A stretch of 43,642 bases of DNA from the NCBI GenBank assembly GCA_040326155.1, contig JBEQLE010000032.1, forward strand, positions 1 to 43,642. Direction: 5' to 3'. Positions 7,576 through 22,119 of the stretch are shown piece by piece. Numbering within the stretch: the first letter of the stretch is position 1; each line of letters begins with the position of its first letter. Source of the stretch: Leptospirales bacterium. Lineage in GTDB: Bacteria > Spirochaetota > Leptospiria > Turneriellales > JAOUFE01. The notes under the pieces are model-generated. The model searched no databases. It was not told the origin of the DNA and saw only the letters and a program-made list of their open reading frames with translations. A program made the translations under genes and the position numbers.

Positions 7576-8436
7576 ATGAATGAAAAAATGAAAACCATAC
7601 ACAACAGAAAACCGTACAACGGTTTAAGATTAGTTTCTAATGTATTAATATCTTCTTTTTTAGCGTTGTCGACAACAACACTATTTTCAGCGGACTTAGA
7701 TCGGGCCATCCAACTTCGAGAATCGGGTAATACCTTGGAGGCCATTCGTCTGCTAAAAAGCGAAAGGAAACCTACGTTAGAGGAAAACGCTCTGCTTGGT
7801 AAACTTTACCTCGATCGAAACGAATACAAAACCTCGCTTTATTATTATAACCTCTCTTGCCCTGCTTTGAATGTGGCGTGGTGTTTCAATGAATGGGGCG
7901 TCGCCTTTATGATGTATGGGGTCTATAAAAATGCCTGGGGAGCTTTTACAAAAGCGGTCGAAATGGAACCTGAAAATGCTCAATACCACTCGAACCTTGG
8001 ACTTTGCTATTTTTACCGGGGTAAACCGGACGACGCCGGAAAACAATACAAGCTGGCTTTACAATACGACCCGCAAAATGAAACGGCGAATATCAACTAC
8101 GCCGTGCTATTAATACGCAAAAAAATGTATGAAGAGGCTACGACAAGATTACAAAATGTTCTCAGTACAGACGACTCAAATCATTTTGCCCTTTTATATC
8201 TGGGCTATGCTTATTATCGTCAAAAACAGTATGCACTGGCAATCGAACAATACGATAAGGCTTTGTCGTTTAACCCAAACTCGGCTGATCTTTATTTATA
8301 CCGCGCTTATGCATATTACGAAATGAACGCCCTTGGACAAGCCGAGGCAGACTTAAACCGAGCTGAAGCGTTGCAGCCTAAACATCCGAAAGTGGGAATT
8401 TTGCGTTCTATGATACAAAGAAGAAGAGGCTACTGA
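7576..8436 (+). CDS. Exported tetratricopeptide-repeat protein
   Basis: Hydrophobic signal-like N-terminus and several TPR units (e.g. AQYHSNLGLCYFYRGKPDDAGKQYKLALQYDP). Confidence 0.88.
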   Translation: MNEKMKTIHNRKPYNGLRLVSNVLISSFLALSTTTLFSADLDRAIQLRESGNTLEAIRLLKSERKPTLEENALLGKLYLDRNEYKTSLYYYNLSCPALNVAWCFNEWGVAFMMYGVYKNAWGAFTKAVEMEPENAQYHSNLGLCYFYRGKPDDAGKQYKLALQYDPQNETANINYAVLLIRKKMYEEATTRLQNVLSTDDSNHFALLYLGYAYYRQKQYALAIEQYDKALSFNPNSADLYLYRAYAYYEMNALGQAEADLNRAEALQPKHPKVGILRSMIQRRRGY

Positions 8437-8718
8437 TAGGGAAGTGGTTTGAAACCGATATCGTAGCGGCGTACATCGTTTCGGGACCAGACCCCGATCG
8501 TCTTGATTACACTGAAATTTACATTGAAAACGTTGGCCTTTATTATTACAAAAAAGGCGACCTCGAATATAAGTTGACAGAAACAAACGTTCTTGATAAC
8601 TCAAAAGCGCAGGATTCTTGTAAATATTAAATCAAAATATTACCGTTTTATTTACACTTTTTTCCAAATTAAGTAACACTTTCACCGGTTCTATTTGTTT
8701 AACTATTAGAATAACGAA

Positions 8719-9219
8719 ATGAGCAAAAACGATATAGATATTACGACTTACTATACAAGCTATGGACCGATGGTTCTGCGAAGATGCAGGCAACTATTAG
8801 GCGAGGAGGATAGAGCTTTGGACGCTATGCAAGATGTATTCTTATTACTTTTAGAAAAGAAAGATAAAATAAAATATATTTATCCCTCTTCTCTTTTGTA
8901 TCGAATAGCAACAAATGTTTGTTTAAACCTGATTCAAAAAGACCAGAAGGTTGTGAATGTAGAAAATATGGAAGAGCTGATGCAAATTGCAAAACATTCT
9001 GATATGGACGAGAAATTATATATACGTGATTTCTTGAATAAAATTTTTAAGAATGAATATCCGTCTACGAGAGAAATTGCGGTAATGCGTTTTATTGACA
9101 AAATGACATATGAACAAATTTCCACAGAAGTAAAACTCTCCGTATCGGGAATACGCAAACGACTTCGTAAGTTGAAAGAAAATGCTCGGCGAACTGAAGG
9201 AGAAGACTATGAACAATAA
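8719..9219 (+). CDS. ECF-type sigma-70 factor
   Basis: Region 2 (YGPMVLRRCRQLLGEEDRALDAMQDVF...LYRIATNVCLN) and region 4 (MTYEQISTEVKLSVSGIRKRL); 166 aa. Confidence 0.92.
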   Translation: MSKNDIDITTYYTSYGPMVLRRCRQLLGEEDRALDAMQDVFLLLLEKKDKIKYIYPSSLLYRIATNVCLNLIQKDQKVVNVENMEELMQIAKHSDMDEKLYIRDFLNKIFKNEYPSTREIAVMRFIDKMTYEQISTEVKLSVSGIRKRLRKLKENARRTEGEDYEQ

Positions 9220-10039
9220 AGCTCTGAGTACTATTGAACTCGAAAGATATATTGCCGGTGAAGTTTCACCGAATGAAAGAATAAAAATAGAAGAACTTCT
9301 GCTGAAGTCCGACGCACTGAAAAACCAGTTAAAGAAACTAAAGCAATCAAATATAGATATTTTACAAAAATACCCACCCGAGAAAATGGCTGCTCTATTA
9401 AAACAAAGATCGCAAAGGGGTCTCTCGCGTAATTATAACGAACCCGTAAAATTCAAAAAACGAAAATTCAATTCCGGGCTTCTGGTTCCCGCTTTTGGAC
9501 TATTCATAGCGGGACTTTTTCTATACCAGTTTCTCCCCCGGGCGTATTATCAGGATGCGACGCTTGAGACGGATGAAACGTTTGAAGTTTATACGCCGAC
9601 TGATGGTAACAGAATTAAAGGTGTAGAAACAAAACTGCTTGCGTATACTCGCAACGGAAGCCATGTCGATCAACTCACACCACAATCAACGCTGCACGAA
9701 GGCGAGAATTTACAACTGGCCTATTTTACATCTTCGCCAGGGTATGGAGTTATTTTTTCCGTGGACGGCAGAGGTGAAATAACCCTGCACTTTCCATCCA
9801 CCAAAAAAGCGGAACAAAAGTTACAATCCGGAAAAAATATTTATCTTGAATTTTCATACGAGTTGGACGACGCGCCTGAATTTGAAAAGTTCTTTTTCCT
9901 GCAATCTGAAAAAGAAATAGATACAGAAGAGTTATTAAAATTAATTAAGAAAGTTGCCACCCGAGGGGAGAACATTAAAAGTAAAAACTTTAAAGTTCCA
10001 GGGCAATACAAACAGACTACATTTATGATACTAAAATAG
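9209..10039 (+). CDS. Putative membrane-anchored anti-sigma factor (ActD-like) with extracytoplasmic domain
   Basis: ATG 9209 has an AAGGAG RBS and overlaps the sigma stop. N-terminal LERYIAGEV helical domain, one TM, then RIKG...GENLQLAY...SVDGRGEITLHFP...SYELDDAPEFE. Confidence 0.75.
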   Translation: MNNKALSTIELERYIAGEVSPNERIKIEELLLKSDALKNQLKKLKQSNIDILQKYPPEKMAALLKQRSQRGLSRNYNEPVKFKKRKFNSGLLVPAFGLFIAGLFLYQFLPRAYYQDATLETDETFEVYTPTDGNRIKGVETKLLAYTRNGSHVDQLTPQSTLHEGENLQLAYFTSSPGYGVIFSVDGRGEITLHFPSTKKAEQKLQSGKNIYLEFSYELDDAPEFEKFFFLQSEKEIDTEELLKLIKKVATRGENIKSKNFKVPGQYKQTTFMILK

Positions 10040-10062
10040 AACAAAATATCAGGAGGAATAAA

Positions 10063-12183
10063 ATGAAAAATTTAAAATCATTCACTTTATATTTTATGGC
10101 AATAGCATGCACGAGCATATTCTTTTCAGATTTGCCCGCTAATGAAAAACCAAATTTTAAAAGATATGCTTTAGTGGTAGGCTCTAACAGTGGAGGATCG
10201 GACCGCGTCAAATTGAAATATTCAATAAGCGATGCAAAAGCGGTTCGCACGACCCTCAACTCCATCGGTGGAGTGGAAGATGACGCCGCTACTTTATTGG
10301 CTGATCCCTCGGTGGCGCAACTGGCAAGGAGTCTACAAATACTTCATAACATCGGTTCGAAGCATCGTAAAAATGGTACAAAAACAGAAATATTTTTTTA
10401 CTATTCGGGCCATTCCGATGAAGAAGGACTTTTGCTGGGCAAAGAAAAGTTTGAATATAGTAGATTAAAAAGCATCATTGAGAAAATGCCCTTTGATGTT
10501 CGCATTGTCGTACTCGACTCTTGTTCTTCCGGGGCTATGACCAGAAGCAAAGGTGGTAGAAAACGAGCTCCTTTTATTAACAATAATTCAAATTCAATGA
10601 AAGGAAACGCTTACCTTACCTCAAGCTCCTCCGATGAAAACAGCCAGGAATCTGATCGCCTGAAAGGGTCCTTCTTTACCCATTATTTTTTATCGGGACT
10701 TCGCGGGGCTGCGGATTCAAATAAAGATCGCCAGATTACGCTGAGTGAAATATACCAATACGCCTATAGCGCGACTTTGGCCAGAACTGAAAAGACGATC
10801 GGTGGTCCGCAACACGCCAACTACTATATACAAATGACGGGAACCGGCGATGTCGTCATTACAAATTTAAGAAGAAACACCGCCATTTTGCATCTGGCTT
10901 CAAACATTTCCGGGAACGTATTTATACGGAACCAAAAAGGACAGTTAGTAACTGAATTTTACAAACCGCCAAAACAGACTTACGATATAGGACTCGAAAG
11001 CGGGTCGCATACTGTTATGGTTATTCAAAATTCAAACATTCTCAATACGGTAGTTACAATGAAAAAAAATGAAACCGTTCGTTTGAATGAAAACGATTTA
11101 ACTCCCGTTGCCGGCGATGAAAGTGTTTCGAAAAAGGGCGATGAAGAAGAAACCGCGCCGGAACTGATCTACACACCATTTAGTTTTCAACTCTTTCCGA
11201 TGGTCGGTTCCTTGAAAAATCATACTACGTTTTCCCTGTTTTTGGTAGGCTCTTACAATTACCGTATAACGGGCGTTTCGGTAGGTGTCGGCGTAGACAT
11301 AGTAAAAGAGAGTATGCAGGGAGTACAAGTGTCTGTTGGCGCCAATATCGTCGGAACACATATGCAAGGCGTACAAGCGACCGTCGGTGGAAACCTCGTC
11401 TTTGGCCCCGCCGAGGGGGTGCAAACAGCCGTTGGTTTTAACAACGTCACCGGGACCTTTTCCGGAGTGCAAGCTGCCGTAGGTTTTAATTGTGTAGCGG
11501 GTCAGTTTTCAGGAGTACAGGTTTCCGCTGGGTTTAATTGTGCAATGGGGCAGTTTTCAGGTGTGCAAGTGTCGAACGTGAATATAAGTTCCGGAACTTC
11601 TGAAGGAGTGCAAGTAGGTTTAGTCAACATAGGTCGACAAGTCAAAGGGGTACAGGTGGGCTTAGTAAACGTATCAGAAGAAAATTCGGGAGTTGCCATC
11701 GGCCTGGTTAATGTTTTTAAAAATGGCTACCATGGTGTAGACACCTGGGCTGATGAAGTTGGGTATTTCCACTTAGGTTATCGACATGGAAATGATAAAT
11801 TTTATAATCTGTATTCAGCCGGAGTACACTATTCCATGAAAACAGCAAAAGCGACTATAGGTTTCGGATTCCAACTTCCCAATGCCGGACCTGTTGGTTT
11901 TTCCATTGATTTTCTCTCTTCCCTGGAAATAGATAAAAGCTTCTCGCTTTGGAACAATTCCAGGTATGACAGGGTAAATGGTTTGGAAAATTTTGAGAGC
12001 AACTACACAAATTCTATACGATTTTTAACCCATATAAAATTTGGAGACCGATTTGGGCTAATTGCTGGTGTTTCCCTGAACCATACAGCAAATAATATGC
12101 CTGCTTCTTACATACCGGGACTTGGAGATACCATAAATGGACACTCCTTCTGGCCCGGGTTTTTCATTGGAATGCGGTATTAA
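10063..12183 (+). CDS. Exported caspase-family (peptidase C14) protein with GVQ beta-helix repeats (LA_2272-like) and a beta-rich C-terminus
   Basis: Signal peptide; RYALVVGSN, FYYSGH (His 10411), VLDSCSSG (Cys 10522), ESDRLKGSFFT; about 15-aa GVQ repeats; ends GFFIGMRY. Confidence 0.88.
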   Translation: MKNLKSFTLYFMAIACTSIFFSDLPANEKPNFKRYALVVGSNSGGSDRVKLKYSISDAKAVRTTLNSIGGVEDDAATLLADPSVAQLARSLQILHNIGSKHRKNGTKTEIFFYYSGHSDEEGLLLGKEKFEYSRLKSIIEKMPFDVRIVVLDSCSSGAMTRSKGGRKRAPFINNNSNSMKGNAYLTSSSSDENSQESDRLKGSFFTHYFLSGLRGAADSNKDRQITLSEIYQYAYSATLARTEKTIGGPQHANYYIQMTGTGDVVITNLRRNTAILHLASNISGNVFIRNQKGQLVTEFYKPPKQTYDIGLESGSHTVMVIQNSNILNTVVTMKKNETVRLNENDLTPVAGDESVSKKGDEEETAPELIYTPFSFQLFPMVGSLKNHTTFSLFLVGSYNYRITGVSVGVGVDIVKESMQGVQVSVGANIVGTHMQGVQATVGGNLVFGPAEGVQTAVGFNNVTGTFSGVQAAVGFNCVAGQFSGVQVSAGFNCAMGQFSGVQVSNVNISSGTSEGVQVGLVNIGRQVKGVQVGLVNVSEENSGVAIGLVNVFKNGYHGVDTWADEVGYFHLGYRHGNDKFYNLYSAGVHYSMKTAKATIGFGFQLPNAGPVGFSIDFLSSLEIDKSFSLWNNSRYDRVNGLENFESNYTNSIRFLTHIKFGDRFGLIAGVSLNHTANNMPASYIPGLGDTINGHSFWPGFFIGMRY
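11270..11715 (+). repeat. Intragenic tandem repeat of about 45 nt / 15 aa (GVQxxxGxN)
   Basis: Successive units such as MQGVQVSVGANIV, MQGVQATVGGNLV, FSGVQAAVGFNCV, FSGVQVSAGFNCA, GVQVGLVN. Confidence 0.8.
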
Positions 12184-15486: not shown

Positions 15487-15676
15487 ATTTGTACACTTGT
15501 AAACAAAGAAACAACAATTTTTGCGTTACAAAAATACCACGAAGCAAGCCGATCAAAACCACTCTTTTTTTTCTGATGTTTTGGGGTGACCCGACCTGCC
15601 AGACGAGCGCGACCCGAAGTCGCACCTGAGCAGATCAAAATTTGCTATGTGATGAAATTGGGTGGACAGTCACACT

Positions 15677-16120
15677 TCAATTTGTAGGTCCAATAGAAAT
15701 AGGAACATCACATTCTTCAAAGTGAGCTTTTATTTCCAATGATCCGCCATGACTTTTCACGAAATTTTCTGGCTGAGGCATTACTTTGGTTTCATGTGAT
15801 GCAGTATGAGTCTCTCCGAACATTTCTTGTAGTTCTTTGAGTCGAATATCTGTTTTATGAGCGACTAAAATCGCTTCCAATCGCGCAATAATTAGATTTT
15901 CATCTCTAAACACTTCATCCGGTCCGTTACCATAATCATTTGATTTGCCCTTATGTATTCCAAATCCTAAGTTTGGTCTATATTCAACGGTAATAACTTC
16001 GTTACCGGCAAAGATGTCTAACCATGAACTCCCTGACTCTATTTCGGCCTTATCTATTTCAAATGTAAAATGGAGGAACTTTGCCTGCACTTTTTTTACA
16101 AAATCATCAAACATATTCAT
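15677..16120 (-). CDS. Hypothetical protein; putative antitoxin with a degenerate XRE/HigA-like C-terminus
   Basis: C-terminal LKELQEMFGET...FVKSHGGSLEIKAHF resembles the tail of HigA-type HTH antitoxins. ATGA overlap with the upstream gene. Confidence 0.5.
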   Translation of the reverse strand: MNMFDDFVKKVQAKFLHFTFEIDKAEIESGSSWLDIFAGNEVITVEYRPNLGFGIHKGKSNDYGNGPDEVFRDENLIIARLEAILVAHKTDIRLKELQEMFGETHTASHETKVMPQPENFVKSHGGSLEIKAHFEECDVPISIGPTN

Positions 16121-16473
16121 AAATCCTCTACTTTTTTACCATCTAAGCCCGGTTTGTCAAGCAATACTATACGATCTTTTACGGTAATAATTTTAATCGA
16201 ACCGTTATTTCCAATATATGTATTGTGTGATCTGTTGCGGTATCTGATAATATTTTCATTGCCTGTACTTCGAATGCTATCTGTTTGCGGTGCGTACATC
16301 CTTCCATCAGTCATCCAGAGTGAAGGCGCAAAGGGAATCTTAGTAAATTCATTCTCTACTTCATTTAATATATGAGTTAAAAGTTGAAATACTTTTTCAG
16401 TAGTATCTACTGGTTTTGCATTAAATAACCTGGAAAAGAATATTTGTAACCTTTTCTGCTTGCTCTCATTCAC
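16117..16473 (-). CDS. Hypothetical protein; putative toxin
   Basis: 118 aa, GTG start; motifs LNEVE, DGRMYAPQ.D, RSHNTYIGNNGSI, LDKPG. Translationally coupled to the next gene. Confidence 0.55.
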   Translation of the reverse strand: MNESKQKRLQIFFSRLFNAKPVDTTEKVFQLLTHILNEVENEFTKIPFAPSLWMTDGRMYAPQTDSIRSTGNENIIRYRNRSHNTYIGNNGSIKIITVKDRIVLLDKPGLDGKKVEDL

Positions 16474-16657
16474 TGAATATTAATCCACTTCAATTATTTT
16501 CTGCAAATGAAAATCGTGTTTAAATTCTGGTAAACCATAAATTCTATCAACCTTCATCTGACACTACTGAATTGAATGAAATTGAACACGTCAATCAATA
16601 TAAATATGACATCTTCGACTTTCCAGTATTTACAGAGTCAATAAATGATAATCCAAC

Positions 16658-16687
16658 CGTACACACAACATGGACGTTGTGTGTACG
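16658..16687. repeat. Perfect 12-bp hairpin CGTACACACAAC-ATGGAC-GTTGTGTGTACG
   Basis: Seen directly, about 33 nt downstream of the helicase stop; no U-tract. Confidence 0.7.
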
Positions 16688-16720
16688 ACTGCTAATCGGT
16701 AATTAACAGGGGAATGTAAT

Positions 16721-18940
16721 TTAAACGTTCAATCCATCACTAATTTTGTTCGCATCAGAATCTAGAAAATTGATGAAATCTTTCTTACAAAGAGATGCAA
16801 ACTTTTTGAGATCATCTAAAACGTAAAAAGATTCAGCAGCATGATGCACGGAAAATATAGTTGGTATAAAATCGGAAAAACGTGAATAATGAAATTTATC
16901 GAGATGACGGCCTAAAAACTTTATCCAATCTTCATTAGTCATGGAATGTAGACTACTTATAAATTCATGAATTGATTCTAAGACTTTTGGTATTGGTATT
17001 TTACGTAGTTTAAACTCTAAACGATAGAAATTATGTGATACTTTTAAACCAGGAAATGAATCACAAAGACAAAATGCAATAACAGTATTGATCATGGTGC
17101 CGGCATATGTTTCGATCCAGAGTTCGGTTCCCATTTTAGTTACACCGATTTTACCTTCTTCAACGGGATTGTGACCAAGTCTTTTTGTGTGTAACTGCAA
17201 TGTTTGTAAAGCGTTGGGACTCACTTGATCTGCTACATTATATTTGCTTGCTAATATATCGTGAAAACGTCTGGCGACTTCATATTCAACACGGAAAAGA
17301 CCACCGCCGCTCCAGGCAGGTGGTAATGCGTCGGCGGCAGGTTTAACCAATATACATTTCAGGTCTTCAATAATCTCTTGTACTGCCCACTTTCGACCGG
17401 CAAGTTGAAAAACAGATTCTTCCGAGTTAAGGCCGAATGCGAACCAACTTTCCAGAAAGCCGATTTCTTCATTATTATACAAAACGGTATAATTCTCATT
17501 TACATCGAATACGGCATAAAGTTCCATATAGTTTTTGTGTGAAAACTTTTTCTCAATGATTGGGCCAATTAGTAATACTCGGCCATCGTTGAATAAGAAA
17601 TCATGACTCACCCAGTATTCAATTAACTTATCAAACTCCTCTCGCTTTATTTCACTAAATGAATATGCGGATTTTATTTTGTTGAAAAAAGTATCAGGGT
17701 TGATGCCATAATTACCAAGTATTTCCAATAATAATTGTTGAAACAAAATATCATATCGGCGTCGGGATGGACGAAGAGGTTCAAAATACCCTTCAGCGCC
17801 TTTTGACGACATGGCCATATTTAAAACAAAATCTTCGAAGGTTTTGGTCAATAGAACGATATGAGCATTTCCATCTCGTCTACCTGCACGCCCTATTCGT
17901 TGTAAGTACGAATTCACCGAGGGGAGGTGATCTTTTTGAATGACTCGATTGAGGTCGCCTATGTCAATGCCAAGTTCAAGGGTCGATGTGGCGCTGATCA
18001 CGCTGTGTGCATCGTCGGTTCGCATTTTTTCTTCGGTCTCTTCTCTAAGAAGTTTAGAAACAGAACCATGATGAACCATAGCATGAATACCACTCACTTC
18101 TAAAATGCAAGCTGTCATCTCTACATCTTTCTTGGAGTTACCAAAAATAATTGTCTTACCCGAAACTGTAAGGTCTTTCAGCGTATGCTGAAGAATGGCA
18201 CCATAGTTTTCACCTTCTTCGTTAATTAATATATGTTCTACCGAAACACTCCTTTGATTTCCTGCTGCGTTAATTATTTCACAATCGGGGCCGGAACCTT
18301 GAAGCCAAGTCGCTACCGCTTCGGGGTCACCTACCGTAGCGGAAAGACCGATTCTTTGGATTGGTTGAGATACAAAAGATTGTAGTCTCTCCATGGAGGA
18401 TGATAGCTGTGCGCCACGCGAATCAGCGGCAAAATAGTGAGCTTCATCTACGACTAACGAGACAACATTTTTGAAATATTCTTTATTATTAATCGATTCT
18501 GAAGCAAGCATTACATCCAGACTTTCAGGGGTGGTTAAAAGTATTGATGCAGGATTCTTTTTTTGTTTATTCTTACTAAAAGCGGAAACATCTCCATGCC
18601 ATTTGAATATGGAAATATCGCCCAGGTTTTCCAGCCAACCTTCAATACGCAAATCGAGGTCGTTTAAAAGAGCTTTAAGTGGCGCTATAAAGATGGCATG
18701 AATACTCTCAGTTTTTGAAGCTGATTCAAAGATATTGGACAATACTGGAAAAAGAGCGGCTTCCGTTTTACCGCCTGCTGTAGGTGAAATGACTAAGCAA
18801 CAGGAACCATTCACGACAACTGGTATAACTTCTCTTTGTACCGGGCGAAAAAAATTTTTACTATCTGCCCACTTCTTTTGTATCTCTCGTTGCACAGTGG
18901 GATGCAACATTTCAAGAATTTCAATATCCGATTTACCCAT
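16721..18940 (-). CDS. Lhr-like DEAH-box helicase (BrxHI/SngC-like)
   Basis: SPTAGGKTEA, TTPESL, VDEAH, GLSATVG, HHGSVS, TSTLELGIDIG, QRIGRAGR, then an Lhr-type winged helix and FQLAGRKW. ATG 18940 overlaps the ATPase stop by 8 nt. Confidence 0.9.
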   Translation of the reverse strand: MGKSDIEILEMLHPTVQREIQKKWADSKNFFRPVQREVIPVVVNGSCCLVISPTAGGKTEAALFPVLSNIFESASKTESIHAIFIAPLKALLNDLDLRIEGWLENLGDISIFKWHGDVSAFSKNKQKKNPASILLTTPESLDVMLASESINNKEYFKNVVSLVVDEAHYFAADSRGAQLSSSMERLQSFVSQPIQRIGLSATVGDPEAVATWLQGSGPDCEIINAAGNQRSVSVEHILINEEGENYGAILQHTLKDLTVSGKTIIFGNSKKDVEMTACILEVSGIHAMVHHGSVSKLLREETEEKMRTDDAHSVISATSTLELGIDIGDLNRVIQKDHLPSVNSYLQRIGRAGRRDGNAHIVLLTKTFEDFVLNMAMSSKGAEGYFEPLRPSRRRYDILFQQLLLEILGNYGINPDTFFNKIKSAYSFSEIKREEFDKLIEYWVSHDFLFNDGRVLLIGPIIEKKFSHKNYMELYAVFDVNENYTVLYNNEEIGFLESWFAFGLNSEESVFQLAGRKWAVQEIIEDLKCILVKPAADALPPAWSGGGLFRVEYEVARRFHDILASKYNVADQVSPNALQTLQLHTKRLGHNPVEEGKIGVTKMGTELWIETYAGTMINTVIAFCLCDSFPGLKVSHNFYRLEFKLRKIPIPKVLESIHEFISSLHSMTNEDWIKFLGRHLDKFHYSRFSDFIPTIFSVHHAAESFYVLDDLKKFASLCKKDFINFLDSDANKISDGLNV

Positions 18941-20177
18941 CCGCTTGGCCAATTTTTGGGAGCAACTCTTTGATTGTTTTTTCTGGAAATTCTTTTAAAA
19001 GGTCGAAAGCTTCGACGAGTTCGCGTATAAATTTTCGTGGACCAGATTCCTTAATACCGAAAGCACCCGTGGATAAGTGGCTAACTAGGGCGGCGAGGCC
19101 TTCATCTGAGATCTTATTCATTATTTGCCAATCTTCAGCTACTCCATGAATAACACGTATCTTTGTTGCAAGTAACGAAAGATCAGATTCGTTCAGTGGT
19201 GATAATTCCAGAATAGGTTGTTTTTTACTGCCTGAACTATCCAGGTTTTTAATCTTACGAATTCGTTCTATTAGGGCTGGGTATTGTCTGATGCCCTTTG
19301 TTTCTGAAAAAAATTGCGGAGTTGCGGTAACTAGAAATAGAGAATTTTGAAACTGACCCGCAGCCGTATCGTCAAGAATGTGCCGTAAAATTTCATAGGC
19401 TTTTAATCTTTGCGTTGGTTGTTGTAATCGCATTACTGTTTCTACTTCATCAAGAACAATTAGAGTACCGGCATAACCAGCCTCCTTTGCCAACAATAAT
19501 ATACCTTTTAGAAAATTATAAGCATTATCACCAGCAATTTTCCCTTTCAAACCTAATTGTTTGGAAAAATCTTTCGCTGGTATTTTATCACTTGCTCTAA
19601 TCCAGTCTAAGGCATATTTTGATAATTCGCTGTTCTTTTGTACTTTGCCACCAGCAAATGCAGCCATAGCTCTAGACAATGACGGATCCATGTTTCGAAC
19701 AGAAACCAATTCATTCTCAATGTGTGACATGAAATCTTTGGCTTGTTCAAGATTAATTGTTGCGGAATCGGAGAGACCTTCAATACTCTGGTGCATACGA
19801 AGTTGTTGCAAAGACCACTCTTCTAATATATTGATAATACCGGATCCATCACGGCTATTTGGAGTTTTAAAGTTTCTACAAAATGCGCTATAGACCTGAG
19901 TAAAGTTACCTAATTGAACTGTTGGATCTATAACTATTTGCGAAATGCAAAAATTCATAGATAATGCTTGTTCCACTAAATATGTTGAAAGCATCGTTTT
20001 TCCCGAACCGTAGTCGCCTTGAATAAAGCGAACTGATGAAATATTATCTTTTTTAACTTTCGTTAATTCACTCATTAGTTCGGAGATTTGCGCTTCATGG
20101 CCAACAATGATTTCACTGAGTCCTTCTTTAGGGACTGTACCGGTGCGCAACGCTTTTAACAACTCTATTCCATTCAT
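18933..20177 (-). CDS. BrxD-like (DUF2791) P-loop ATPase
   Basis: ALRTGTVPKEGL N-terminus, Walker A GDYGSGKT, Walker B LIVLDEVE, TATPQFF...GIRQYPALIERI, PRKFIRELV. Confidence 0.85.
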   Translation of the reverse strand: MNGIELLKALRTGTVPKEGLSEIIVGHEAQISELMSELTKVKKDNISSVRFIQGDYGSGKTMLSTYLVEQALSMNFCISQIVIDPTVQLGNFTQVYSAFCRNFKTPNSRDGSGIINILEEWSLQQLRMHQSIEGLSDSATINLEQAKDFMSHIENELVSVRNMDPSLSRAMAAFAGGKVQKNSELSKYALDWIRASDKIPAKDFSKQLGLKGKIAGDNAYNFLKGILLLAKEAGYAGTLIVLDEVETVMRLQQPTQRLKAYEILRHILDDTAAGQFQNSLFLVTATPQFFSETKGIRQYPALIERIRKIKNLDSSGSKKQPILELSPLNESDLSLLATKIRVIHGVAEDWQIMNKISDEGLAALVSHLSTGAFGIKESGPRKFIRELVEAFDLLKEFPEKTIKELLPKIGQADG

Positions 20178-20187
20178 TTATATTGCC

Positions 20188-21741
20188 TTATTTTAATTGG
20201 TAAAGTGGATGATCACTGTACTTCTGGACCACAATTATATCTTGCCCATTTTCTTGCATTTTTTTAATCATATCATTCATTTGAGTTTCTGGAAAATACC
20301 ATGGCAGATCAAACCTGGCGACGAGACGTTCAATGACTGGTCCTGAGGCAGTTTTATTTTCTATGATGAATGATAGAATAATCAATTCATCAGATGAAAG
20401 GTATGGATACTTAACTTTAAGTCCGTCAATACTTTCAGATCGTTTTTCTTTTGCCTTTTCTCGGTCGACCTGTGTAGATAAACTAATGATTGAAGCCGTA
20501 TCATTTTCTATTTCATCACTTTCTTCAGGGGGAGAGTAAGAAGAAAAATTATCAACTATTCTTGAAATTTTGTCTTGTTTTGAACCTGAAACTTTAACAT
20601 TTAGTTTCGAACATAAGTCATATAATTCAGAACTCGATAATTGGTTTAAAAGCGTATTCTCAGAATAAATACTATCCCATATACTCTGTATTCGATTCAT
20701 TTTGGAGCCGCTTTTATTTATTTTCCTGAGGCCTGATGCGATGGAGTAAAGTTGTTCATTGGAGAGTGGTGTAAATATTTGATGAAATGCTTCTTTGCCA
20801 AGAACCTTTTCTTCAGGTTTGGGTGGCGCAAGTTTTTTTTCTAATTCTTCCTTTCGTCGCAAGTCCTCATCGCTGTCGATGAAATCAATTATATTTTCAA
20901 TGATATCTGATTTGCTGCCACTTATTTGTGAGCCAATCTTTCTCGCAGCGTCTCTTAGAATATCATTACTAAGATTGTTCAGTGCATTTCTGGGTGAAAC
21001 ATAATTTTCTATGATACGTATAGATTTTTCAGCTGCGCTACCAGAAATGCTTAATTCATTTTTCTTTAAAATTTCTGTTAAATCATGACTTGGTATTTGT
21101 TCTAAAAGTCTCTGGTATTGTTCATTTGTTAATGAAAAACCCCAAGTCTTTCTGATTATTGGAATCATTTCCGATGCAATTGTAAAATAACCTTCCAAGG
21201 GGTGTAATATACCGCTAGCTATGAGATGATTACGTTCTCTTTCATAGTAGTTTTCACTAAACCAGTAAGTTGTTAGGGATTCGTGATGTTCTAGTATAAT
21301 ATGTTCCTTAAAGGATATATCCAATTCGTCCCTTAGTGCCATAAGTAAGCGATATTCAGATAGATCAATCGAAGAGTCCGATTCCCAAGCCACCTGTAGC
21401 ATTTTCAAGTAAAGAGAGTAATCTTTTTTTGAACGTAAACCTTCACCTTTAGTTGCACTTTTGATAAAGATTTCAGTGTTTTTCTTTATGGCATCTTTGA
21501 AGCCTTTAACTGATATTTTATGGTCTGGCTCATCAATAATTTTACTTAAAATTAGATAAGATGGTGGATTTCGTAAAGATAGAGACTTTTGGATGTAATA
21601 GAATTTTAAAAGATGATTACTCAATTCATCCACCAAGACTTCTCTGGGGAGTTTGATATGATCAATATCTTGAATTTTTCCGGTCGCAAGTTGTTCCAAG
21701 CTTTCAATTTGATAAGAATTTAAAATGTCATTTAGTTTCAA
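20188..21741 (-). CDS. Uncharacterised protein with a TerB-like helical segment, four SAP-like repeats and a possible C-terminal winged helix
   Basis: Likely TTG start at 21741 after GGAG (the ORF extends to 21756). VAWESDSSIDLSEYRLLMALRDELDIS, and four L..(I/L)....(I/V/K)SGS....(I)..I units. Ends 10 nt before the ATPase. Confidence 0.7.
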   Translation of the reverse strand: MKLNDILNSYQIESLEQLATGKIQDIDHIKLPREVLVDELSNHLLKFYYIQKSLSLRNPPSYLILSKIIDEPDHKISVKGFKDAIKKNTEIFIKSATKGEGLRSKKDYSLYLKMLQVAWESDSSIDLSEYRLLMALRDELDISFKEHIILEHHESLTTYWFSENYYERERNHLIASGILHPLEGYFTIASEMIPIIRKTWGFSLTNEQYQRLLEQIPSHDLTEILKKNELSISGSAAEKSIRIIENYVSPRNALNNLSNDILRDAARKIGSQISGSKSDIIENIIDFIDSDEDLRRKEELEKKLAPPKPEEKVLGKEAFHQIFTPLSNEQLYSIASGLRKINKSGSKMNRIQSIWDSIYSENTLLNQLSSSELYDLCSKLNVKVSGSKQDKISRIVDNFSSYSPPEESDEIENDTASIISLSTQVDREKAKEKRSESIDGLKVKYPYLSSDELIILSFIIENKTASGPVIERLVARFDLPWYFPETQMNDMIKKMQENGQDIIVVQKYSDHPLYQLK

Positions 21742-22119
21742 TATGTACTCCAACAAAAAAGAGATTAAAGGTGTGATATTTAATTATTCTTCTAAGACTT
21801 TAATATTCACCACCATTAATTAATATTTACGTAGGAGTTTAAGTCTTTTTTTATTATAGATGAAATTAAATGGCCCAAGCCGTTTGCATTATTATTTTTC
21901 GTATAGCCTTACAACCTGCCATTTGCTTCTGATCACCGTCGCAACCAGGATCTAATCCGTGATCAGTATTTGCAACTAAAACATGGAGTCTATTATCGGC
22001 TATTAATGATTTGCACTTTCAATTCATTAAAGGAACATCTCGGGGCATTTGAAGATAACGTACTTTAAACGAATATCCAACGAAGCAACCTCCCCGGATT
22101 TTCACGCGAAATCCTGGTA

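Follow-up and report, generated by a model that had tools for sequence, protein, structure and literature searches.

The 43,642-nucleotide (nt) contig JBEQLE010000032.1 of a Leptospirales bacterium (assembly GCA_040326155.1), analysed over its whole length and called here the window, carries on its minus strand three co-oriented and tightly packed open reading frames (ORFs), named A, B and C in the order in which they are read, which probably constitute an unnamed relative of the Shango and BREX type 2 systems. Gene A (20188-21741) encodes a SAP-repeat protein of 517 amino acids (aa), gene B (18933-20177) a DUF2791/BrxD-like AAA+ ATPase of the ORC/Cdc6 type with 414 aa, and gene C (16721-18940) an SF2 DEAH helicase of the Lhr/BrxHI-like kind with 739 aa from its ATG. 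The ORF of gene A opens upstream of the start given here, at 21756, with 522 aa from this first TTG (20188-21756), and the residues of A are numbered below from that codon; the TTG at 21741 is most likely the true start, since a GGAG stands 7 nt upstream of it, the homologues begin with MKL at this place and the database copy has 517 aa. For gene C, the ORF would cover 16721-18952 and encode 743 aa if started from a TTG. A and B are separated by 10 nt, and B and C overlap by 8 nt when C is started at the ATG at 18940, with which the tight coupling described for the three genes in the initial annotation holds.

The helicase, the ATPase and their SAP-repeat partner

Genes B and C encode enzymes with known relatives. 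B matches the Pfam family BrxC_BrxD (PF10923) with 290.2 bits, against a cut-off of 22.2, over profile positions 8-410 of 414, and its Walker A motif GDYGSGKT (residues 54-61, 19995-20018; this and all other features of the three genes are on the minus strand) and Walker B motif LIVLDEVE (residues 239-246, 19440-19463) are intact. Among the PADLOC models it scores 234 bits with BrxD and 176 bits with SngB, and it stays below the cut-off of the NCBIfam BrxD equivalog NF033438 (235.5 versus 350 bits). C combines the Pfam domains DEAD (PF00270, 103.8 bits), Helicase_C (PF00271, 68.8 bits) and WH_Lhr (PF19306, 45.4 bits), and on PADLOC it reaches 513 bits with BrxHI and 419 bits with SngC. Its motif I PTAGGKTEA (18758-18784), motif II DEAH (18437-18451), motif III SAT and motif VI QRIGRAGRR (17876-17902) are all intact, and reading of these motifs confirmed the intact Walker and SF2 signatures that had been noticed at the outset.

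Protein A is a protein built of SAP repeats, without earlier description, and its family is unannotated by current models: SAP itself is the sole Pfam family matched (PF02037, 32.4 bits against a gathering cut-off of 23.9) and nothing was found for A in NCBIfam. From the N-terminus, A presents a helix-extension-helix (HeH) of the Rho-N/SAP-like type (residues 6-46, 21619-21741), a winged-helix-like domain with a helical insert and the conserved motif WESDxxIDxSExxLLxxLRxELxIS (residues 47-210, 21127-21618), four SAP repeats (residues 211-405, 20542-21126; repeats at about 211-250, 256-295, 326-364 and 367-405) each with an invariant G-x-K, an acidic linker predicted to be disordered (residues 406-445, 20422-20541; 11 D+E versus 5 K+R), and a C-terminal winged helix with the conserved ARFDLPWYFP, which is predicted to be the domain docking on the ATPase (residues 446-522, 20191-20421). 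The alignment of 11 homologues places the four repeats in register, with invariant columns at G239, G280/K282, G350/K352 and G391/K393, and shows R481 and W486 to be invariant in the C-terminal domain. Among solved structures, the profiles of the A family match only SAP domains, namely 2rno (the best, E 8e-4) and those of Ku70 (1jjr), Tho1 and DEK. The AlphaFold model of the whole protein has a predicted local distance difference test score (pLDDT) of 77.6, falling under 50 for residues 410-440. When models were compared with the PDB by Foldseek, neither the whole protein nor its N-terminal part gave a match at E <= 0.001, and the C-terminal helix-and-hairpin domain gave local matches to MarR-type winged helices (probability 0.97-0.98, E about 0.5). 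A has no hydrophobic segment (maximum Kyte-Doolittle(19) value of 1.06), and its description as a soluble protein with repeated SAP-like motifs stands. Judging by the type of its domains, A may bind nucleic acid.

Modelling of the complex predicts that A associates with B. The A-B model obtained a score of 0.61 (runs 0.61, 0.56 and 0.62) against 0.00 for the best control; of 157 solved complexes, 116 reach this mark, as do 2 of 215 mismatched pairs, a calibration only roughly valid here as our own alignments were used. At least 93% of the contacts were common to the runs, with a partner pLDDT of at least 78. The modelled interface brings A residues 454-515, which include the conserved DLPWYFP, onto B residues 107-143 and 178-190, a segment which we take, by an assignment made here, to be the helix-extension-helix insert described for BrxD in the accessible text of PMC12839542. 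The C-terminal winged helix of A is thus predicted to dock on the helical insert of B.

The same partnership exists in nature as fusion proteins. Five proteins of 958-1211 aa (P0086, P0087, P0088, P0091 and P0093) carry the whole A profile followed by PF10923 at 312-333 bits, and with two N-terminally truncated examples (P0107 and P0175) fusions amount to 7 of the 27 proteins scanned. The five full-length fusions share 36-44% identity with one another and align to both P0001 and P0002; one fusion, from an NCBI metagenome-assembled genome (MAG), is named 'BREX system ATP-binding domain-containing protein'. The proposal of the initial annotation that the first protein recruits or triggers the ATPase-helicase pair is supported by the predicted docking and by the existence of these fusions.

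For the wider family of A, an exhaustive profile search retrieved 405 representatives at E <= 0.001, 199 at E <= 1e-10 and 95 at E <= 1e-30, the weak matches being possibly due to the SAP repeats alone. Many members have about 400-440 aa and cover only profile positions 1-405, without the docking domain, and some, of 590-700 aa, present other C-termini (among 10 longer forms scanned, 2 have a zinc ribbon). In a distant group, whose members are about 500 aa long, profile positions 63-290 of A are joined to a C-terminal FokI cleavage domain, found at E <= 0.01 in 7 of 22 proteins scanned (P0169, P0173, P0187, P0205, P0208, P0209 and P0216) and above the Pfam cut-off in just one of the 22, P0169; three of these seven also show a sub-threshold TerB match. 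At the level of sequence, such arrangements fit the idea that the N-terminal part of A is a reader module combined with different effectors.

Conservation, phylogeny and insertion of the cassette

A word-indexed search gave 15 relatives of A, counting the copy in the window itself, and eight related loci were compared, four from genome contigs and four from metagenome contigs. A homologue of A is present in all eight, B follows it in the seven with downstream DNA (L008 stops inside A), and C follows B in all five that reach past B; L003 and L011 are cut off within B, and L009 within C. L002 and L009 are not independent, because they give identical figures for B. The loci from genomes belong to Leptospirales, Rhodothermales, Binatia and Acidobacteriota MAGs, that is, to at least four phyla, and in all of them B scores higher with BrxD than with SngB, C scores higher with BrxHI than with SngC, and A has no PADLOC match. 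The three genes are therefore conserved elsewhere in the same A-B-C order. The flanks of the cassette vary between loci: that of the Leptospirales MAG (L001:1-7771) lies beside type I-G cas genes (Cas3-like helicase, GSU0054, GSU0053), a PIN-domain protein and a WYL/WCX regulator, and that of L002 lies beside baeRF and DUF488 genes, whereas housekeeping genes are the neighbours in L004 and in the window.

The distribution of the cassette is patchy. Among 41 relatives, a homologue of A was found only in the source genome itself and is absent from the 40 others, and the same genome is the only one with such a homologue among 401 sampled genomes of the phylum, of which 11 have PF10923. Viral contigs gave 15 pattern matches, none of them related to A, and tblastn with P0001 and with the 426-aa variant P0102 gave no match in plasmids.

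The relationships of the ATPase were studied with a maximum-likelihood tree of 47 sequences, 46 of them different (45 in an earlier quick version), from which dbl1 and dbl2 of L025 as well as P0066 were left out for their long branches. The context of BREX was provided by the scan of the phylum, in which the ATPase-helicase pair (BrxD/BrxHI) of L022 and L023 is immediately preceded by PglZ. SngB forms a clade with a support of 100/100 from which B is excluded, and the BrxD clade, of context-verified and NCBI-named members, also has a support of 100/100. A split supported at 97/93 separates the SAP-linked ATPases, the ATPases of the fusions and BrxD from SngB and a small L024/P0034 clade. The tree, like the PADLOC scores of 234 versus 176 bits, makes the ATPase BrxD-like and not SngB-like, in agreement with the earlier reading of it as BrxD-like. 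BrxD and the SAP-linked pair L010/L011 are sister groups (96/89), both within a larger group that also contains L002, the fusions and L004 (86/83, 96/88); in 200 bootstrap trees, the six sequences from SAP trios never formed one side of a branch. When the tree is rooted on SngB, a root which is an assumption, this topology suggests that BrxD descends from within the SAP-linked ATPases.

Other loci and sequences were noticed during this survey. P0028-P0032 form a clade of DUF2791 ATPases sister to that of the window (35-38% identity), and their contigs match no contig of the A homologues from the word-indexed search. In the same phylum, L025:4202-9125 presents two tandem diverged DUF2791 ATPases (422 and 401 aa) beside a divergent ResIII/Helicase_C protein. 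L024:465-9000 has a DUF2791 ATPase and an Lhr-like helicase at the start of its contig, which truncates the first gene, and behind them an HsdR_N/PD-(D/E)XK protein, an N6_N4 methylase and a ResIII protein; its ATPase is in the separate clade with P0034. In L022:7007-11459 and L023:7488-13042, an AbiEii toxin gene stands immediately upstream of a BREX type 2-like PglZ-BrxD-BrxHI block, and L022 also has a DUF6088 gene with AbiEii and a PD-(D/E)XK protein downstream.

In the window, the cassette is part of an inserted island of about 6.6 kb (15487-22119) lying between the gene of a thiamine-binding protein and a DUF5715 gene, as delimited by synteny within the family. The genes for LeuRS, DUF5715, the thiamine-binding protein and orf334 form an uninterrupted series in L035 and L036, two genomes of the same family, in which the DUF5715 and thiamine-binding genes are about 50 nt apart, versus 6.6 kb in the window, where A, B, C and two small ORFs stand between them. 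Because these flanking genes are adjacent in both genomes, the cassette arrived by insertion and is horizontally acquired. The GC content of the island is the same as that of its surroundings, and a search for direct repeats at its edges gave none above 10 nt.

Upstream of A, an AT-rich intergenic region of 378 nt (21742-22119, minus strand), which includes the GGAG before the TTG, is presumed to be the promoter region; the count of promoter-like patterns in it, 25 versus a shuffle mean of 18.9 (standard deviation 4.8), singles out no specific promoter. A terminator-like hairpin with 17 pairs, 7 of them G-C, and a T-poor tail (16654-16691, minus strand) starts 30 nt past the stop of C. Further downstream of the helicase gene, two small ORFs of 118 and 147 aa overlap by 4 nt (15677-16473, minus strand); they have no Pfam match and only Atlas scores of 0.76-0.85, and no homologue of them was found in the other loci compared. 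They came in with the cassette as passengers, may form a separate small two-gene unit, and are not claimed here as members of the system.

The scan of 18 flanking ORFs, among them those for LeuRS, DUF5715 and the thiamine-binding protein, found no BREX-type methyltransferase or kinase, PglX and PglW not having been searched genome-wide. PglZ (PF08665) is absent from these flanking ORFs and has no match in the genome, which is 94.7% complete, while control genomes were positive. Genome-wide, PF10923 occurs only in two BrxD-sized genes (frames of 414 and 428 aa), with no BrxC-sized protein, which agrees with the first description of the trio as having no BREX core beside it. Elsewhere in the window, a co-oriented run on the plus strand (7576-12183) encodes a TPR protein, an ECF-type sigma factor (Sigma70_r2/r4), a DUF4384 protein and a 706-aa caspase-domain (Peptidase_C14) protein, and may be a signalling or conflict cluster.

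Function of the cassette and alternative readings

These results establish that the cassette is real and conserved, and we regard it as a new form within the kind made up of Shango and the BREX type 2 dyad. We favour, with fair confidence, the reading of it as a stand-alone, horizontally acquired system of the Shango/BREX type 2 helper-module kind, its role being most likely defence against phages or mobile elements. This reading is based on the conserved A-B-C order, on the patchy insertion, on the best matches of B and C to models of defence systems, on the grouping of B with BrxD, on the A-B fusions and the predicted A-B docking, on the FokI cleavage domain of distant relatives of the N-terminal module of A, and on the defence or conflict genes beside the cassette in L001 and L002. 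It is also based on Shango, which has the same ATPase-helicase pair and, according to the accessible text of the reports (PMC10250203; 10.1101/2022.05.11.491447), protects against phages. The initial annotation had proposed such a stand-alone Shango/BREX-related system, and the computation supports it, with the activity itself being presumed from these relationships. The charge of A is near neutral, which calls for caution as to strong DNA binding.

A possible mechanism can be drawn from the domains. SAP/HeH and winged-helix domains bind nucleic acids, ATPases of the ORC/Cdc6 type are ATP-dependent loaders or switches, and Lhr-type helicases translocate 3'-5' on single-stranded DNA. A would be a multivalent nucleic-acid-binding sensor or adaptor, through its N-terminal HeH, its winged-helix-like domain and its four SAP repeats, with the flexible acidic linker tethering the C-terminal winged helix that would be docked on the helical insert of the ORC/Cdc6-like B. 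Contact of A with its target DNA would lead B to load or activate the helicase C at the expense of ATP, and C in turn would unwind the DNA of the invader or strip proteins from it. The cassette encodes no nuclease, and killing might come from displacement of the replication or transcription machinery or from exposure of the DNA to host nucleases. A loader is the role which we infer for B, and a loader or switch role was proposed for BrxD in the accessible text of PMC12839542.

A bolder version of this scenario, which we consider conceivable but doubtful, is that the SAP cassette is the free-living form of a module taken up at a later time by BREX type 2 as BrxD-BrxHI. Here weak HeH/SAP readers set in an array would sense a physical property of the incoming DNA and would gate, through a detachable winged-helix adaptor that is fused in some lineages, an ORC-like loader placing an Lhr-type helicase. 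If true, it would represent an immune mechanism free of nuclease, with the same N-terminal reader wired to FokI-type nucleases in other lineages.

Two other scenarios appear unlikely to us. The first considers the cassette as a divergent Shango that works as Shango does, A being an SngA so strongly altered that hidden Markov models no longer recognise its TerB core and TerB_C adaptor. The gene order is indeed the same, B and C also match SngB and SngC, and A gives several faint signals: its motif WESDxxIDxSExxLLxxLRxELxIS (residues about 124-148) resembles the TerB motif and may form a TerB-like hairpin; the best hhalign alignment of a broad, 42-sequence A profile with SngA falls exactly on the TerB motif of the latter (A residues 109-148 against the 'AADGxI..E...I..I...FGLS' region, probability 0.14, E 0.42); that of the A1 profile falls on TerB_C (probability 0.29, E 0.21); and Pfam TerB (PF05099) reaches 16.7-18.0 bits, for a cut-off of 24.4, at the equivalent place in 3 of 17 distant relatives of A scanned at E <= 0.01. 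None of these TerB or SngA signals is significant, however. A matches neither the PADLOC SngA model (E <= 0.01) nor Pfam TerB_N and TerB_C even at E <= 10, its homologues in L001, L002 and L004 match none of the three, BLASTP of A against the SngA of its own genome is not significant, and no TerB is present among the structural matches listed for A, though such a domain could escape this list.

That the models work in the source genome is shown by an internal control, as a canonical sngABC operon is present on its contig C95 (L007:7894-13490, plus strand). Its SngA, in which TerB_N, TerB and TerB_C are all present, reaches 137 bits with the SngA model, and its SngB and SngC reach 473 and 665 bits; B is 27% identical to this SngB and C is 30% identical to this SngC. 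A BRCT-domain protein (L007:6900-7805) precedes this operon and two flagellin-N genes follow it. B also lies outside the SngB clade and beside BrxD. The first protein does not match SngA, and the label 'TerB-like' which the initial annotation gave to it is not established, the signals being all sub-threshold.

The second scenario, just as improbable, is that of an accessory module for DNA repair or replication restart, in which the SAP/winged-helix protein would recruit a repair helicase of the Lhr type, together with the loader of this helicase, to DNA that is damaged or stalled. Repair proteins such as Ku70 do contain SAP domains, the neighbours in the window and in L004 are housekeeping genes, and C matches the NCBIfam ligase-associated DEXH helicase TIGR04121 (260 bits) as well as further models of Lhr-type helicases, NF010338 and NF007284. 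All these matches are nevertheless far under their cut-offs (850 bits for TIGR04121), and the score with BrxHI is higher. Moreover, the cassette is a rare and patchy insertion, absent from 40 of 40 relatives, unlike a repair pathway, and the nearest relatives of the ATPase are found in BREX loci, while L001 and L002 have defence or conflict genes beside the cassette.

Finally, that a decayed BREX type 2 left BrxD-BrxHI without pglW, pglX, pglY and pglZ behind an unrelated upstream gene is hardly credible and was rejected, despite the best matches of B and C to BrxD and BrxHI and the place of B nearest to BrxD in the tree, given the absence of PglZ, the census of PF10923 and the conserved A-B-C order, kept complete behind the same first gene in loci of other phyla that have no BREX genes in the flanks examined, and given too the A-B fusions, the intact motifs of all three genes, the score of B under the NCBI cut-off for BrxD and the fact that no pseudogene remnants of PglZ, PglX or PglW were seen beside the cassette or the related loci.

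Relation to described systems

In a full-text search of the literature, supplements not covered, no SAP-linked cassette of the BrxD/BrxHI or Shango-like type was met. Look-up of terms in the accessible text of 10.1101/2025.09.30.679545, PMC12839542 and PMC13069673 found no SAP-linked cassette, and the words SAP, Shango and TerB do not occur in that of PMC12839542. Since current PADLOC models leave the first gene unannotated, such cassettes have probably been missed in censuses of defence systems. TerB proteins were reportedly first linked to this ATPase-helicase pair by Anantharaman, Iyer and Aravind in 2012 (Mol Biosyst), which could bear on the novelty. Shango, with the TerB-domain protein SngA, the DUF2791 ATPase SngB and the DEAD/DEAH helicase SngC, is said to have been described by Millman et al. 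2022 and Johnson et al. 2023.

How the pair of a DUF2791 ATPase and an Lhr-like helicase works is unknown for both Shango and BREX type 2, as far as the accessible text of the relevant articles goes (PMC10250203; 10.1101/2022.05.11.491447; 10.1101/2025.09.30.679545; PMC12839542). The cassette represents a compact, three-gene form of this pair, with a partner whose domain logic can be read. The docking predicted for a defined domain of 77 residues and the natural fusion in one clade provide concrete mutants and constructs for understanding what the pair senses and does. The tree, for its part, suggests for the BrxD of BREX type 2 an origin among stand-alone cassettes of this type.

Several known families and systems share features with the cassette. 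The four in-register SAP motifs of A and its Rho-N-like N-terminal HeH resemble the SAP/HeH motifs of Ku70, PIAS/SIZ1, Tho1, DEK and the N-terminal domain of Rho, but A arrays five such motifs in one bacterial protein, between two winged-helix-like domains, and is coupled to an ATPase-helicase pair. Like the Lhr and Lhr-core repair helicases, C has the Lhr winged helix behind its SF2 core and an Lhr-like region at its C-terminus; it differs from them in scoring far below the Lhr equivalog cut-offs and in sharing an operon with a DUF2791 ATPase, a context foreign to Lhr.

The BrxD-BrxHI pair, described in the accessible text of PMC12839542 as a tightly linked dyad specific to type 2 BREX, is close to B and C, both of which have their best matches with its models; B groups with BrxD (97/93), and the tight linkage of the genes is the same as that reported there. 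Differently from BREX type 2, however, no PglZ match and no PF10923 protein of BrxC size accompany the cassette, the flanking ORFs scanned include no methyltransferase, its B is under the NCBIfam cut-off for BrxD, and it possesses a dedicated SAP-repeat partner, fused to the ATPase in some cases.

Shango, whose TerB protein, ATPase and helicase give modest to strong protection against phages according to the accessible text of PMC10250203 and 10.1101/2022.05.11.491447, and for which that of 10.1101/2025.09.30.679545 calls the mechanism of protection by the TerB protein unclear, shares with the cassette the order of a three-gene operon, a non-enzymatic first gene, a DUF2791 AAA+ ATPase, an Lhr-like SF2 helicase and the lack of an encoded nuclease. 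The two differ in the first gene, which in the cassette has SAP repeats and winged helices instead of the TerB_N/TerB/TerB_C architecture and is unrelated by every significant test, and in the ATPase, which lies outside the SngB clade; and in the bacterium studied here, the cassette and a canonical sngABC coexist in one genome.

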